A stretch of DNA of 64,000 bases from Trichodelitschia bisporula (taxonomy: Eukaryota): positions 762,691-826,690 of the forward strand of contig ML996689.1 of NCBI GenBank assembly GCA_010356995.1, in the 5' to 3' direction. A program made the position numbers and the translations under genes. Shown here piece after piece: positions 22,478 through 36,995 of the stretch (position 1 is the first letter of the stretch; the number at the start of each line of letters is the position of its first letter). Below the pieces are notes generated by a model. That model searched no databases. It saw only the letters and a program-made list of their open reading frames with translations, and was not told the origin of the DNA.

Positions 22478-22870
22478 GCATACCTTTTCTGTGTAACTGC
22501 TAGGGACTACATACTTTTCTATGTAACTGCTAGTGAGTACATGCATTCTCTATGCAACTGATAGTGAGTACATACTTGTTCTATGTAAATGCTAGCGAGT
22601 ACATGCTCATTCTATGTAAATGCTAGCGAGTACGGATGTACACACTTTACTATGTAACCTCTAGCGAATACGCACTTTGCTATGTAACTACTAGCGAATA
22701 CGCACTTTGCTATGTAACTACTAGCAAATACGCACTTTGCTATGTAACTGCTAGGGAATACATACACATTCTATGTAACTGCTAGGGAATACACACTTTG
22801 CCATGCAACTACCGGCAAATACACACTTTGCTATGTAACTGCTAGGGACTACATACTCTTTCTATGTAAT
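22478..22870. repeat. Minisatellite, ~13 units of ~30-31 bp (consensus approx. CTATGTAACTGCTAGGGAATACACACTTTG)
   Basis: The CTATGTAAC..CTAG core recurs about every 30 bp. Confidence 0.92.
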
Positions 22871-29334: not shown

Positions 29335-30970
29335 CTCCCAATGGCAGGAAAAGGTCTTATTTAGCGGCGTTTACCGAGTTTTCCCACTGGATGGTGTGCC
29401 CTGTGGCCGGTGCTGGCGGTGCTAACTAGTTCGAGGACCAGGCCTACGTCTGCCATGGAGTTGTAATGCCCACGATGCCCACTGCCCCTATGGCAGGAGG
29501 AGGTTCTTCGTAGAGGCAGTGCCATTTTCCCGCAGGGTGGGCCTGGGGTGATGATAGCGTCCGTAACCAAAACAACCTCTGCCATAGAGGTATAATGCCC
29601 ATATGCCCACTGCCCCTATGGCGGGAGTAAGTCGTGCTAGCGGCACTACCGTGGTTCCGCAGGGTGGGCCTGGGGTGATAGTAACGTCGCTAACAAGACC
29701 TACTTCCGCCATAGGGATAATGCCCATAGGGATATAACGCTCAAAAGCCCACATGCCCATATGCCCACATGTAGCGCTGCGAAAGCCCGGCCGACGACAT
29801 AGAAGAATAGTGAGAAGGCCGCTGCCAGCATTGCGCGCATGGTCAATGACCCCCCCAAATGGAAGTCTTAACCAGCATCTTTTGTTCTAGCGTCTAACCG
29901 ACCCGTCACGCGGTATAGGAACGACGGCGGACGGTGAAGGTTATTGCGCCTTTGCGGAGCTATGGCTGGAGGGAGGCTTGCTAGGAGCGCTGCTACCATG
30001 CTCCCTTTCGGGGCGATGGGAGAGCTGCTAGCTGGCCTTACCCTCTGCACGTAGTCTGCTGGAGATCTATAGCAGGAGGAAGGCTTGCTAGGAGCGCGGC
30101 TACCATGCTCCCTTGCCTTCCCAAAGGGTGGGCCTGGGGCGATGGTAGGGTCACCAACAGACCTTACCCTCTGCCGTAGTCTGCCATAGGGGTCTTATGC
30201 CCAAATTGCCCACTGACCCACTGCCCCTATGGCTGGAATCCTCCTCTGCCATAGGGATGATGCCCTCGTACCCACATGTAGCGCTGTGGAGCCCAGCCGA
30301 CGACATAGAAGAATAGTGAGAAGGCCGCTGCCCGCATTGCGCGATGGTCAGGGACCCCCAATGGGAAGTTTGTAACCACCACTTGTGTTCTGGCGTCTAG
30401 CCGACCTGTGCACGCGGTATGGGGATGACGGCGGACAGTGAAGGTTATTGCGCTTTGCAGAGACTGGGGCCTCTGTCGTAGGGCCATGGGGGCGCTAATG
30501 CCCACATGCCCACTACCCTATGGCGGGGGTGAGGTATGCTAGAGGAGCTACCATGTTCCCACAGGGTGTGCCTGGGGGTGGTGCAACGTCCCTAACAAAC
30601 TCCACCGCTGGGGTAAGGTATGCTAGGGGAGCTACCATGCTCCCACAGGGTGTGCCTGGGGTGACAGTAACGCCCCCTAACAGACCTTACCTCCGCCATA
30701 GTGGTTATATAATGCCCACAGTGCCCACAAGCCCACAGTGCCCACAAGCCCACAAGCCCACAAGCCCATATGCCCACATGTATGTAGCGCTGCGGAGCCC
30801 AGCCAACGACATAGAAGAATAGTGAGAGGGCCGCTGCCCGCATTGCGCGATGGTCAGGGACTCCAGATGGAAGTTTGTAACCACCACTTATGTTCTAGCG
30901 TCTGAACCGACCTGTGTTGCACGCGGTATAGGGATGACAGCGGACAGTGAAGGTTATTGCGCTTTGCAGA
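29335..30970. repeat. Composite tandem array: three ~190-bp blocks at a 506-507 bp period, interleaved with ~8 related fold-back units (CCTATGGC...GCCATAGG)
   Basis: GTAGCGCTG anchor at 29771, 30278 and 30784. Inverted-repeat units at ~29335-29460, 29487-29590, 29614-29716, 29960-30054, 30067-30190, 30225-30256, 30516-30609, 30610-30701. Confidence 0.9.
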
Positions 30971-31345: not shown

Positions 31346-31933
31346 CAGAAGGGGGACGCCTTGCAGAAGAGGAAGGCACGACCGCCAGCGCCTGCTAACA
31401 CCGCGGAAGTTTCCCAGAGGTAAGTCCATGCCATTCTGCGGGTCTGTGCTTTGGCTGTTCCCGGGCAAACTCCGAGAAGATTGATCCGGGGACGCAATAA
31501 CATGAGTCTGGATGGTTGAGACGAGATGCAAAAGAGCTCGCCTTGGGCATCGAGCACCGAGGGGGCCTCAACCATGGGAGCACAATGAGAAGTGTGCCAT
31601 CTCAAGGCTAGGGAGATTATGGCAAGCCCACACTCTCACTGAATATCCAATACACCGGACTAGAAAGCACTTCATGGAAGGATGTTTGGCAAGGCACACG
31701 GCAAGTTGAACTAGGCCTCACAAACATTGTAACGTCAAAGCTGCATATGATGAGGCTGCTAATCCATTCAATTCATTGATCTAGAAACTCAAGTCCCTCT
31801 GGAACATTAACCGGGAGACCGTATCATTAGATGTCAAGCAAGACGCTTCATATAATGTCATTCTGAACAGTTCAGGGGTTACCCACACATCTGGAAGAAG
31901 CGCAACGGAGTGGGATTGAAGTCCCCACTTGAT

Positions 31934-32557
31934 TCAAGGTGACGGCGCAAGCTCGTCAGGCATGATACCGCGACATTCCTTGCGCTCCTTGCGCTTGTCC
32001 ATCTCATTGACGAATATGTCAACCATCAACTGAAGCCCCCATTCGGTTTCCCAGACAATTTGCTCCCAGTAAGCGGCAAATCCCTTGTAGTACAACGCCG
32101 TTGCGGCAATGAAGTCACGCACAATGCTGCGGGCGTAGTCGCAGTCGGACCGTTTGCCCCTGCGTTCAAACGTGATCCAGTCGAGGGCCCATTCCTCGTA
32201 GTTCTCGGGTTCGACCTTTCTCCGATGCGTGTAGTACTCCGCCTCCAGCCGTAACTTCCTCAGCAGAAGCTGTGGTGGTGATACCTTATGGATTGTGTTA
32301 TACGCCTTGTTAGGAGTGTCGCAATTGGCAATCAAACGTTGTAGCTGCTTGCACACTGTGCTGTTGATGACCGCGAGCACCCCGATAGCCTTAGGGTCCA
32401 TTGGATCAGTTGATGCTTTCTCATTGACGTCAGCGGCATTGAAGTCGACCGGATGTTCAACGGAGAGACTCCGGACGTATTCCACCAATTTTGCCCGCCA
32501 TGCAAGCCATTGCCTCATCTGGCAAAGCACTATCCGCCCGTCCGCAGCCATCTGCAT
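31934..32557 (-). mobile_element. Solitary Ty1/copia-type Gag (capsid)-like ORF, 207 aa, no pol or LTR seen
   Basis: The pattern QWLAW..INSTV..CDTPNKAY..LEAEY..YEEWALDW..DFIAA..FAAYW resembles fungal copia gag N-terminal regions (from memory, not searched). Uninterrupted ORF, with TATA-like TTATAAA at ~32797-32791 and a CT-rich leader. Confidence 0.6.
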
Positions 32558-32969
32558 TGGAGCTTCGAGACTTGTTGGCCTTGGCCGTGTGGTGAAGTGA
32601 GGAAGTAGCGAGTCCGGGGAGATCCGGGTGAAGAGAGGGAGGGAGGGATTTGAAGGGTTGCTGGGTAACTTGCGGTGTTGTGCAGCGATGACGCTTTTGA
32701 TCCTTCTTTGGACCCGCTCATGAGACGCAGATACTCTCGCTAGCGGAAGTGATCGAAAGAAACAACGTCAATAGTGTGTCGCAAGCGGGGTTTATAACTG
32801 TCACCAGAGATGCGCCGGCAAGTATGTCAGGAAGTTGGTCGACATGTGTTGGAGCAAACTGCAGCTATCTAATGTCTTATGCGACTAGATGCCAAGAGTT
32901 GACGTTGAGGAAAGTACTACCCACCGGCGAACCTCCTTCTAGGGTATGCGCCACACCCCTCATGAGACA

Positions 32970-33863
32970 TTGAATCTAATCCGCAAGTGGTGAAGTCGAG
33001 GTACATCGAAAGGTAGTAGAACTCTCTGTGCGGGCATAAGGATATAAATTAAATCCTTCTAAACGACTAGTTCTAAATGTCCCTTCTGCTCCTCCCTTCT
33101 CGCCGGTCGTGAGGATCGGCTACAAGGGTTATGGCGCGGAGTCAGGCGTGCTCCAGCATTTATGAGTATGATTGCCGCACGCTGAGGGAGCGGAGACCTC
33201 ATCCGGTTGAAAATAGCCCGAACTTTTCAAGGTCCCCCCTAACTTGATCTAGCCCGCAAGTGGTGAGTCGAACTACCTGGAGAGGTAGTAGACCTGCCAG
33301 TACGGGCATGGAGATATAAATCACAATCCTTCTAAACCACTTAACTGCCCCTTCTGCCCATCCCTTCTCACCGGCTGTGAGGACCGGCTACAAGAGTGCA
33401 CGTCGCAGAGTCATGCGTGTTCCGGCAATGCAATCGGCGCACTGATACATTGCCACACGCCGAGGGAGCGGAGACCTCGCCCGGGACCTTCGCCCGGAAC
33501 CTGTAAGGCCCGCTTGATTTAATCTATCCCGCGGGCAAGGGTCGGACTACATAGAGAGGTAGTTGACCTGTAAGCGCGGGCGTGGAGATATAAATTAAAA
33601 TCCTTCTGAACAACTTAACTGTCCCTTCTGCTCCTCCCTTCTCACCAATCGTGAGACCGGCTACAAGGATATGGTCGCGGAGTCATGCGTGCTCCGGCAT
33701 TTATGAGTATGATTGCCGCACGCTGAGGGAGCGGAGACCTCATTCCGTTACAATATCCAGAACTTTCAAAGTCCCCGCTTGACTTGATCTAGCCCGCGGG
33801 CAAGGGTCAGACTACATGAAAGGTAGTTGACCTGTTAGCGTGGGCGTCGAGATAGAACTTTTT
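32970..33863 (+). repeat. Tandem array of ~270-bp structured units (3 full plus 1 partial)
   Basis: GATA(T/G)A anchor at 33041, 33313, 33587 and 33851 (spacing 272, 274, 264); conserved hairpins with compensatory changes. Confidence 0.9.
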
Positions 33864-34122
33864 AACGGGAGTTGATAGTGTCTGCGGAGAGAGCGTGCGG
33901 ACAAGGCTGCCAAGCCGTCTAGCGGAGATGCGAGACTGGAGTTGAAGGGTGGAGGGTTTTACGCATCGGAACAATATATCGCCATGTCGATTGAACTATG
34001 AGTTGGATCGTGCATTTGAGGACAGATTCGGCGTTATGGAGAGTGTCCAATGACTAGCTTGGCAAACAATGAATGTTAGCTCAGTTCCGCGATGCTGATG
34101 TTCAAAGGTCGCTAATGTTGAA

Positions 34123-34203
34123 GGGTACAGAATCTCGTTTTTTCTCAAGTCGTGACACAGCTTGCAATCTCGGGTCAACCTTTCGTATAGATCATCATTG
34201 CCC
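34123..34203 (-). pseudogene. Duplicate of the intron-6 snoRNA with box D changed to CTGT (intron 7)
   Basis: Direct repeat 34072-34280 vs 34319-34530; ATGATGA intact at 34198-34192, CTGT at 34130-34127. Confidence 0.55.
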
Positions 34204-34369
34204 AACAGGTGCACTGAGAGATCTCATAAGAAACGTCCAACAGAGAACTTGGGCACAGGTGCCGTCGGTGACTTACAGAAGGGGATACTTTGGACATTCT
34301 AAACAGAGCCAAACCTGTAATGTTAGCTTAGTTTCGCAATCCTGATGTTCAAAGGTCGTTGATGTTAAA

Positions 34370-34455
34370 GGGCTCAGACTCTCGTTGTTCTCATGTCATG
34401 ACGCAGCTTGCAATCTCGGGTCAACTTCTTTCGTACTTATCGGTCATCATTACCC
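34370..34455 (-). ncRNA. Intronic box C/D snoRNA candidate (intron 6), no target assigned
   Basis: ATGATGA 34450-34444, CTGA 34377-34374, terminal stem GGGT/GCCC. Confidence 0.7.
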
Positions 34456-34625
34456 AGTTAGAGGATTGATCGATTCCATAAGAAAGGCCCAAAGAGCTTG
34501 GGCACAGGTGCCGTCCGTGACTTACAAAAGAAGACGCCGTGAACGCTCTGAACCAGATGAAATCTGCGAAACCATCAGCCTTGACCTGAGGAAGTCAAGT
34601 ATCGACCATTTGCGACCATTTCGAG

Positions 34626-34703
34626 GCGGTCAGGTCACGTAAGAATTCATCATCGAGGGGAAACCCCACGGTCGGTCTACTCTCTTGTTTTTCATCATGC
34701 CAC
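34626..34703 (-). ncRNA. Intronic box C/D snoRNA (intron 5), no target assigned
   Basis: C ATGATGA 34698-34692, D' CCGA 34675-34672, hairpin GGGG-TTT-CCCC, C' ATGATGA 34653-34647, D CTGA 34633-34630, terminal stem GTGG/CCGC. Confidence 0.82.
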
Positions 34704-34837
34704 AATGTTGAAAGATTAGCTGACAGCGACTTACAAGCAGGGATAAAGGCGACGGAGCATGAGGTGAGAACCGAGACCGGGCACAAAACTGTTAGGCCCT
34801 CTTTCCTAAAACCCAGAGTGTAGTCGAGAAGGGAAGG

Positions 34838-34925
34838 CCGTTCGGTTGAATAGGTGTTTCCATCTCAAGGGCCAGGTTCGTGTAAGATCGAAAGATTTAG
34901 CACTCAATAAGCATCATCAAAACAA
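34838..34925 (-). ncRNA. Degenerate box C/D snoRNA candidate (intron 4)
   Basis: TTGATGA 34920-34914 and D-like CCGA 34845-34842, at the same relative intron position as its neighbours. Confidence 0.4.
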
Positions 34926-35053
34926 GATGCGGAAGAGTGTGGCTGGCTCTTACAGCAGTGGGGAATGGCCTCAGCCGATTCGGGGTTTCCTAGATCGTAC
35001 GCAATGTCAGCTAGCTTCCAACCATTCCCACAGTCGTCGAGCGTTTCAAGAAG

Positions 35054-35137
35054 CGGTAGTCAGATATGTTTTTATCTCCATGTCAAGGTTTCAACCTTGG
35101 TGAGACTTCTTTCCTCTAAGTCATCATGAAAGTACCG
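35054..35137 (-). ncRNA. Intronic box C/D snoRNA candidate (intron 3), no target assigned
   Basis: ATGATGA 35127-35121, CTGA 35063-35060, terminal stem CGGTA/TACCG, internal hairpin CAAGGTT/AACCTTG. Confidence 0.7.
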
Positions 35138-35849
35138 AATATTGTATGATAGACAGATGTTTGTCACATCAGTGCGCAAAAGGGCTTACCGATTCAATAG
35201 AGATAGCATGCTACAGCAAGTCGGCGGTGACTGGACGGAAGCGGCGTTCGCAAGTTCGGAGGCGTATGGTGATTAAGAATCGTTCTGTGCACGTATGCTT
35301 AGAGCAACCAGAGTCTTCTATGCTGGAGTTAGTATCCTGCGACAATATTTGACCCTCCATGGGTATATGCAGGAAGGTGCCGTTTCATCGGATGCATGCA
35401 TCACGAGAGAGCTAGGTGGGAGTGTCGCTTAAACATTGCACACCGGTGGGCATATGTGCTTCAGAATGGATATTTGGAAGTCACTGAGTACGGAAGATGG
35501 CATGTCTTGAGCTGGCACAATAGCAGATAGGCTTAGAAGTTGACTTCATGAGTGCTCAGAGCAGCTTGTTTGCTGACAACAAAGACTACGGAATGACGCA
35601 TGACAAGACGCATACCAGATGCTGATACCAGCAGTTCGCTTCCTGAAGACCGAGCTAACAGGCTGAGGTTTTGCGCAAACCAGCATAGGCATTATGTGAT
35701 ACCAGATACATGTTATCAACCGAAGTGCAAAGGACACAAACACCCAGTGAGCCAGCACCCAGAAGCCAGTCAGAAGTGGAGTACCTGGCGTGTCGGAAAA
35801 GCGTTAGCATGTGTTGTTACTGTAAGCGGAAACAATGTAGAGAATTGCT

Positions 35850-35980
35850 GTGGTCAGAGAGAAGATTGGTTCACCAGTGGACGATGAAGCACAAAAACCA
35901 GAGCCGGAAGGACCGATCGGCTTCTGTACAGCACCGAACTTTGTAAGGCTAAGGATGATACGAATGATTCATCATAGGAG
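35850..35980 (-). ncRNA. Box C/D snoRNA, predicted U6 2'-O-methylation guide (mgU6-47/SNORD7 type)
   Basis: Box C ATGATGA 35975-35969, box D CTGA 35857-35854. The guide AATCTTCTCT next to D is complementary to U6 AGAGAAGAUU, and D+5 falls on the last A of ACAGAGA. Confidence 0.8.
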
Positions 35981-36487
35981 CGGCGCAGAGTTGAGAATGT
36001 CAAGTGATCACTTACCATGCTGTCAAATAAAGGACCATTGCAATGATCACTTATTGAAACGCAAATATGGTTGAAGCCAGCGAAATGTTGCCAGAGGCGC
36101 TGTAGTCATTGGAAGAGGCAGTGATGAGGGAATGAAGAGGGTGAGTTGGAGTGGGTTGGAGAGTAGAGGGTGCAGAATGTCGCCTTTTATAGGAAGATGC
36201 AGGTGGCCTGTGCTCGTCCTGCTTCAGTTAATCTGCGGCGGTAGCAGGAGCGATGAAGCAGTGGCAGAAGTGATCAAGCAATGGCAGGAGCGATCGAGGT
36301 TGCCTTCGCTTGCAGTGCAGCCAAGGGGCCACCGGAAAAACGTGGCCTCAGCGTAAGTTGGCCGTTCACGGCAGTGACGGTTGCTAGCCAGCAGGTTTGG
36401 CGTCGAAGGTGCATGAGATGACTCCTCATGGAAGCTGTCCGACCGCAGTATGGCACGTGTCTGAGATATCTGAAGCGTTGAAGGATC

Positions 36488-36995
36488 TCAATCCATCACA
36501 CCGCCGGTACTTTCAACCACACGAACGACGTCGTCTTTGATCTCCGGCACCGCTGAGATGAGTTCTTTGGCGAGGACGTCCCGGAACTGTGCAAAGGCCT
36601 CCGTCTTGCCCTTGAGCTTCTGGTTCTGCTTCATGACAAGTTCCACAAACTCGCGCGTATAGATATCAGGGTTTCTACCCTCTTGGACGTATTCGATGAC
36701 TTCCGGCGGAATTGTAAATTGGAGATTCGGTACGGTTTCTTCGAGCGCCGCGAGATTGTTCGCAAGGTCGGTGCTGAGGCATGTCAGCAACGGTTGAAGC
36801 TACGCCTCCGGCGAGAGCAACATTTCGCGTTTCATGGCAGCTTCTGTCGGAGCCCCCTGGTGCTCAAGAGCCTGCACAATGAGATTGTACAGATTTTGAG
36901 TGACACTCTTCATCTGGTCTGTCGGACGTCAGTGCGATGCAAGAGTGGAGGATAGAGATCCTACCGTCAACCTGGGCGAGCGTTGCCTGAGCCAT
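36488..36995 (-). CDS. MED10: Mediator subunit Med10/Nut2, 3 exons
   Basis: IPPEVIEYVQEGRNPDIYTREFVE..NQKLKGK motif. Upstream exons MAQATLAQVD and QMKSVTQNLYNLIVQ are joined by two short introns. Confidence 0.93.

Follow-up and report, generated by a model that had tools for sequence, protein, structure and literature searches.

Does a tandem array of about 270-bp units in a fungal intergenic spacer encode a structured RNA, or do its paired arms descend from a DNA repeat that multiplied and decayed? The question is raised by a locus on contig ML996689.1 of Trichodelitschia bisporula (assembly GCA_010356995.1), which lies within a stretch of 64,000 nucleotides that was analysed as a whole and is referred to here as the window. 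A preliminary description of this DNA, made from its letters, had read the units as a covarying, unclassified structured RNA on the plus strand. Here, we describe an analysis of the array, of its hairpins and of the transcripts that reach it.

The genes of the window carry introns and have a fungal look, and include a GH3 glycosidase gene and an intron-split gene encoding a PXA domain. The array lies in a 2.7-kb spacer, with an orphan gene's 5' end on one side and the Med10 transcript's 3' end on the other (Table 1). The open reading frame of the orphan gene stays open for 207 aa (31934-32557, minus strand), and its GC content at third codon positions, 0.69 versus 0.39 at second positions, is a coding-like pattern. 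The predicted protein matched only itself among the 113-363-residue proteins of a 5.8-billion-protein index, and it has no Pfam match. Tandem duplication has struck this neighborhood elsewhere, both within the same spacer and in other intergenic parts of the window, and these further arrays were available as controls.

Table 1. Features of the array and of its surroundings, with positions in the window.
Feature	Positions	Strand	Remarks
Tandem array, ~3.3 units of 264-274 bp	32970-33860		Non-coding; Tandem Repeats Finder and in-register copies
Unit 1	32970-33237		Alignments
Unit 2	33238-33511		Most diverged; apical loop replaced; alignments
Unit 3	33512-33776		3' half close to that of unit 1
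Unit 4, partial	33777-33860		5' domain only; TATAAA degenerate; alignments
Two-hairpin module, unit 1	33146-33201		6 bp, TCC bulge, 4-bp stem, then TGAGG..CCTCA hairpin
Two-hairpin module, unit 2	33415-33479		Two compensatory pairs and a replaced loop
Two-hairpin module, unit 3	33687-33742		
AGGTAGT-hairpin sites, units 1-4	33008-33019, 33280-33291, 33554-33565, 33818-33829		
Only RNA-type contig on the array (run X3, depth 3)	32869-33238	+	Spliced twice; GT..AG joints
44-nt GT..AG intron	32944-32987	+	GTATGC ... CTAAT ... CAAG; removes the 5' arms of unit 1's 5' domain
58-nt GT..AG intron	33013-33070	+	GTAGTA ... CTAG; excises the first TATAAA and the 3' arms of that domain
Orphan gene, 155 aa	31934-32401	-	Array in its 5' flank; coding-like GC, RNA-type cover
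Med10	36491-36799	-	Pfam
Second, unrelated tandem duplication in the array's spacer	34063-34556		2 units of ~247 bp, 78% identical
Further decayed tandem arrays, intergenic	22479-22869, 29449-29728		Periods 30/91 and 127; Tandem Repeats Finder

The repeat itself is confirmed. Tandem Repeats Finder reports a period of 274 over 33041-33854 (3.0 copies, 74% matches, score 721), and a repeat search of the window recovers four in-register, head-to-tail copies spaced by 272, 274 and 264, so that the tandem ~270-bp units of the preliminary description are borne out. Its statement that every full unit carries a TATAAA followed by a CT tract also holds, in units 1 to 3; these elements are degenerate in unit 4. 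The motif AGGTAGT, a good match to a 5' splice site, is kept in all four units, where it lies in the 3' arm of a short ACTAC..GTAGT hairpin. Within unit 2, moreover, a 13-nt segment is tandemly duplicated at 33473-33502. Units 1 and 2 are 75.6% identical (63 differences in 258 aligned columns), units 1 and 3 are 81.4% identical (48 in 258), and units 2 and 3 are 74.7% identical (65 in 257). Transitions and transversions stand at 37:26, 27:21 and 37:28 in the same three comparisons, and from the alignments the decay between units looks neutral.

Two repeats recur at a two-unit spacing, one of 95 nt at a spacing of 541 (89% identical; repeat D5) and one of 46 nt at a spacing of 540 (80% identical; repeat D13). 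The copies of each are more alike than neighboring units are on average, and in alignment columns 201-240 units 1 and 3 are identical at 31 of 31 positions. The two-unit spacings therefore indicate that one expansion step would have duplicated two units together. Across all six frames of 32870-33900 the longest open stretch is 76 codons, with 13 to 22 stops per frame. A protein-coding reading was rejected for the spliced form of the RNA described below as well, since no frame remains open. The array is a real, non-coding tandem repeat whose units share 75-81% identity.

Neither a known RNA family nor a second copy of the unit was found in the searches that we ran. None of the 4227 families of Rfam 15 matches the window at its gathering score, in agreement with the earlier failure to fit a hammerhead, twister or HDV consensus by eye, and ARAGORN predicts no tRNA gene or tRNA-like cloverleaf in the window, as the preliminary description had also judged. 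A permissive Rfam search of 32600-34600 returned five matches at E values of 1.3 to 7, with 11.7 to 20.4 bits against thresholds of 37 to 55; they include weak look-alikes of the snoRNAs SNORA44 (minus strand, E 2) and sR7 (E 6.4). H/ACA and box C/D assignments, examined by eye, were rejected on either strand, given these E values and boxes that are not kept across units. A Pol III-type gene with a TATA element and a T-run terminator was likewise rejected, a TTTT run being present in unit 1 only.

With blastn, the best match to the array outside its own bounds in the 64-kb window is 17 nt long (E 0.16). A covariance model built from the hairpin module (R1), run over the window with filters off, returned its three training copies (82-96 bits), followed by a match of 12.4 bits (E 0.14). 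Word depth in the DNA runs (X1 and X2, both from one sample, possibly the source of the window) is 405-445 for contigs of the array and 427-484 for its flanks, and only the 47-mer that units 1 and 3 have in common is doubled in depth (956). This single-copy depth indicates that the sequenced genome holds no further near-identical copies. A scan of metagenomes with an invariant 17-mer of the array gave 65 loci, roughly the number expected by chance on a crude estimate, and none of them is unit-like beyond 19-29 nt around the seed.

These searches bear on the view that the array derives from a mobile element, for example from tandemised solo LTRs, from a SINE or from subterminal repeats in a DNA transposon. 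A ~270-bp unit that contains a TATA box and inverted repeats would suit an LTR or a subterminal repeat, and the RIP-type indices of the array differ from those of its flanks: TpA/ApT is 0.98 and (CpA+TpG)/(ApC+GpT) is 1.02 in the array, compared with 0.51 and 1.39 in the flanks. The array values are borderline, however, and inflated by the repeated TATAAA, which raises TpA. RIP was rejected as the cause of the divergence since the changes between units contain no excess of C>T or G>A (changes private to a unit comprise 15 G>A and 6 C>T, compared with 13 each of A>G and T>C). The unit also lacks a tRNA-like part and has no second copy in 64 kb, and its single-copy word depth argues against a young family. 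We regard an origin from a mobile element as very unlikely.

The case for a structured RNA was founded on a module of two hairpins in the 3' half of each full unit and on changes that appear to compensate one another between copies. The first stem reads GCGTGC/GCACGC in unit 1 (33146-51/33177-82) and GCGTGT/ACACGC in unit 2 (33415-20/33455-60), and the second hairpin reads TGAGG/CCTCA (33183-87/33197-201) and CGAGG/CCTCG (33461-65/33475-79) in the same two units; both pairs of helices are present as they had been cited. The third cited pair, CCGCA/TGCGG against CCCGCG/CGCGGG, is present too, but the stem of unit 2 contains a C.A mismatch. As had been described, unit 2 carries a different distal loop on the GGCA..TGCC stem, of 24 nt instead of 15 nt, and a stem lengthened to GGCAATG/CATTGCC. 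No donor for the replaced loop was found in the window, where the longest match is 10 nt. The 9-nt loop GAGCGGAGA, which holds a GGA, and the TCC bulge are invariant across units; the preliminary description had proposed a putative pseudoknot between the two, on which invariant bases carry no covariation.

The stems of this module (H9-H11) are nearly all Watson-Crick, with no G.U pair on the plus strand. Between units 3 and 2, four of the six differences in the H9-H11 module make up two compensatory pairs and none breaks pairing; permutation gives P = 0.008 and 0.003 for this comparison, for a structure that was chosen post hoc. The comparison amounts to two to three sequences from effectively two lineages and has no outgroup, the lineages being reduced to two by the identity of units 1 and 3 in columns 201-240.

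Folding energy does not single out the units. Against 100 dinucleotide shuffles each, the whole-unit z values are -0.31, -1.25 and -1.82 on the plus strand and -1.45, -1.49 and -1.24 on the minus strand. For the hairpin module, 200 shuffles give -0.40, -1.59 and -1.67 (plus) and 0.02, -1.08 and -0.92 (minus). Neither units nor modules thus have folding energy in excess of shuffled sequence on either strand, and when units 1 and 2 are folded to minimum energy, competing pairs displace the second hairpin. An RNAalifold consensus on the plus strand recovers the helices of the preliminary description (62 pairs, -53.43 kcal/mol, covariation term +0.9), and the consensus on the minus strand comprises 76 pairs at -65.95 kcal/mol with a covariation term of -0.42. 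The argument that G-U pairs favor the plus strand fails on these alignments. The plus consensus contains 12 G.U cells and 13 unpaired cells, and 10 of the 13 are C.A or A.C, which become G.U on the minus strand; the claimed plus-strand preference is therefore absent, and the minus consensus is the more stable of the two. One-sided changes favor the plus strand in the 5' domain and the minus strand elsewhere. A structured-RNA fold of the whole unit on the plus strand is not supported by these predictions.

Whether the pairing is kept better than chance was examined against several nulls. In a pair-count control, 93.0% of cells are paired on the plus strand versus 91.0 (5/500) and 93.4 versus 91.8 on the minus strand (13/500), on a tool with which 5-25% of unconstrained alignments reach 5/500 or less on the cells-paired and covariation-score measures. 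Pairs changed on both sides number 5 against 2.6 expected over the whole unit on the plus strand (29/500) and 6 against 3.1 on the minus strand (13/500); for the 5' domain, in which four copies can be compared, there are 3 against 1.8 (102/500). By these counts, whole-unit covariation among three copies is marginal. A simulation on a fixed structure (13 broken cells against 30.5 expected) was set aside as biased because the structure had been chosen from the same data.

A second null starts from the majority consensus, places the observed number of substitutions in each unit and predicts the consensus fold anew each time. It was run in three variants, in which substitutions fall anywhere, fall within 5-15 columns, or keep the base change of each substitution. 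For the whole unit, z on the plus strand ranges from -0.27 to -1.38 (9/120, 27/100, 34/100, 34/110, 10/110 and 12/100), and on the minus strand from -2.88 to -3.88 (0 of 100-120 in every run). The signal divides by domain. The 5' domain gives z -1.24 on the plus strand (22/200) and -1.84 on the minus strand (8/200); the middle gives 0.09 (111/200) and 0.03 (108/200); and the 3' domain (columns 176-280, corresponding to 33146-33237 in unit 1) gives -3.05 (2/200) and -3.43 (0/200). When the replaced loop of unit 2 is fixed as a single event, the 3' domain still gives -2.81 on the plus strand (1/300) and -3.25 on the minus strand (0/300). In a pairwise version of the null, this array scores from -0.44 to -1.90 on the plus strand and from -1.85 to -2.81 on the minus strand, compared with -0.19 to -1.44 for three other arrays of the window; the control duplication at 34063-34556 has no pairing-preservation signal, with z -0.5 on both strands.

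Under these models the ~100-nt 3' domain keeps its pairing better than a random placement of its substitutions does, on both strands, and some constraint on the 3' hairpins, at the level of RNA or of DNA, is possible. The proposal of a covarying structured RNA is thereby narrowed. What stands is that hairpins within about 100 nt keep their pairing (z near -3 on both strands) and belong to no known family; what does not stand is the unit as a whole, which has no excess folding energy and only marginal covariation (29/500), and the strand, as the signal is symmetric or stronger on the minus strand.

Transcription across the locus was followed through contigs of sequencing runs. Two runs, X3 and X4, are treated as RNA-type from their behavior, although their run records do not list RNA: they are RNA-like because a 231-nt CT..AC intron (35782-36012), retained in the DNA runs, is missing from their contigs, and because the spacer has no cover in them. 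RNA-type contigs cover the region of the orphan gene (31842-32869 at depth 24 and 31968-32841 at depth 10). Such contigs show neither RNA ends nor strand, save through GT..AG joints, and the one that enters the array has two of these joints, which place it on the plus strand. The AGGTAGT of unit 1 is the donor of its 58-nt intron. After splicing, 25 nt of the proposed 5' domain remain (32988-33012), and 33071-33238 is exonic. The two introns excise most of the 5' domain, and the whole-unit fold is therefore impossible in that mature RNA. The X3 and X4 contigs give no cover of 33239-35531, and gaps between contigs are no proof of silence. Unit 1, then, is at least weakly transcribed. The spliced plus-strand RNA would be a low-level by-product, for example a divergent transcript from the orphan-gene promoter or read-through. 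A spliced-leader-like reading of the invariant AG|GTAGT in its hairpin was considered and rejected, as the site in unit 1 serves ordinary cis-splicing.

The same transcript touches on the suggestion that the array is multiplied cis-regulatory DNA that serves the orphan gene, or else a core promoter present in several copies, with the palindromes serving as protein-binding sites. A TATAAA with a CT-rich tract resembles the core promoters of filamentous fungi, and the recurrence of the TATAAA and then the CT-rich tract in units 1 to 3 is what such an origin would leave. The array begins about 100 bp past the end of the orphan-gene RNA-type contigs (32970 versus 32869), in the 5' flank of the gene, and a strand-symmetric pairing signal is what DNA palindromes would give. 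The sole RNA seen, however, has the first TATAAA downstream of its start and within a spliced-out intron, and this element is therefore not the promoter of that RNA. Among the contigs, no start follows the TATAAA of unit 2 or of unit 3. Not every unit keeps the CGG/CCG-type half-sites of the palindromes, and compensatory changes would not be the usual product of selection on a dimer binding site. On balance a regulatory origin of the array appears improbable.

We consider it reasonably probable that the array is an old, decaying, locus-specific tandem duplication of the minisatellite type, with palindromes inherited from its founder. The founder unit would already have contained several short inverted repeats, and unequal exchange or replication slippage may then have multiplied it, one step copying two units together; the copies would later have drifted to their present 75-81% identity. 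The hairpins would accordingly be DNA palindromes handed down from the founder. The few paired changes that keep them intact, concentrated in the 3' ~100 nt, probably arose where replication template switching corrected one arm against the other, or else through weak selection acting on the hairpin, as DNA or as RNA. A plus-strand RNA fold is the less likely cause of these changes. The DNA-palindrome reading fits since the pairing signal is strand-symmetric and the stems are almost purely Watson-Crick.

The array resembles promoter-proximal and intergenic minisatellites in being head-to-tail, non-coding, situated in the 5' flank of a gene and, as far as the 64-kb window and the depth of the DNA runs show, confined to one locus, and in its moderate identity between units and its two-unit duplication. 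It differs from them in that one part of its unit keeps hairpins better than chance, and its ~270-bp unit is longer than those of classic minisatellites. According to Monttinen and Loytynoja (PNAS 2022, PMC8794818), template switching during replication can give hairpins compensatory changes of several bases at once. The arms described here share with such hairpins near-perfect Watson-Crick pairing, changes on both arms with no visible G.U intermediates, and, in unit 2, an apical segment that was replaced along with a lengthened, perfect stem. They differ from the published cases in that no donor or switch points could be reconstructed here and the events, drawn from three copies with no outgroup, are unordered.

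Set against this minisatellite-type origin is the view that the ~65-100-nt part with two or three hairpins is a functional RNA element, equally credible on the minus and on the plus strand, and carried three times by a non-coding RNA transcribed upstream of the orphan gene. It draws on the preservation of the 3' fold beyond the permutation nulls on both strands, on whole-unit minus-strand z values of -2.9 to -3.9 where control arrays are flat, and on two clean compensatory pairs beside an invariant loop and bulge; the spliced plus-strand RNA, moreover, spans the module of unit 1. The same part nonetheless folds no better than its shuffles, loses its second hairpin to competing pairs in two of the minimum-energy folds (units 1 and 2), and has no match in Rfam. 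The strands also disagree by domain, one-sided changes pointing to plus in the 5' domain and to minus elsewhere, and RNA-type cover amounts to one depth-3 contig on unit 1 with none over units 2-4, a gap that does not prove silence.

Repeat-derived long non-coding RNAs offer a parallel in that a spliced, non-coding plus-strand RNA enters this array, but here it reaches unit 1 only, in a single run from a single study (depth 3), with the unit partly spliced out. Rfam ribozymes, snoRNAs and tRNA-derived elements are hairpin-rich as these units are, yet no family reaches its gathering score. A functional RNA element in this part is, in our judgment, unlikely. The more specific form of the idea, in which the 3' ~65-100 nt (the long bulged hairpin, the 5-bp hairpin with the GAGCGGAGA loop and a third stem) would be a lineage-specific RNA element, possibly of the minus strand, that acts on the orphan gene or is processed from a transcript, is quite unlikely; if it were true, the pairing-preserving substitutions would reflect selection on RNA.

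As it stands, the array is one more decayed tandem duplication in a genome where such arrays seem common, and it matters little in itself. It does carry a caution, in that a few compensatory pairs among three paralogous copies are not enough to prove an RNA fold. What deserves to be retained is that pairing in the 3' hairpin module is preserved better than in three control arrays of the same window. If the orthologous spacers of related fungi were to covary in these helices, the module would become a small new RNA element or else a clear example of palindromes maintained by template switching.

Two further observations concern the remainder of the spacer. RNA-type contigs run about 950 nt past the Med10 stop codon (~36488), down to 35532, and the 231-nt intron at 35782-36012, which lies on the minus strand, falls within this cover. 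This cover represents a long spliced 3' UTR or, alternatively, a separate non-coding transcript farther downstream. In DNA run X2, two minor contigs leave the sequence of the window at 34523 and re-enter it at 35134, at depths of 57.6 and 11.1 compared with about 210-270 for the colinear form. The intervening 610 bp hold no convincing gene (open reading frames of at most 58 aa) and have no RNA-type cover. The loose ends of the minor contigs resemble what we take to be a recombinase target site of the lox type, which suggests an engineered junction that uses the array's spacer, beside the array.
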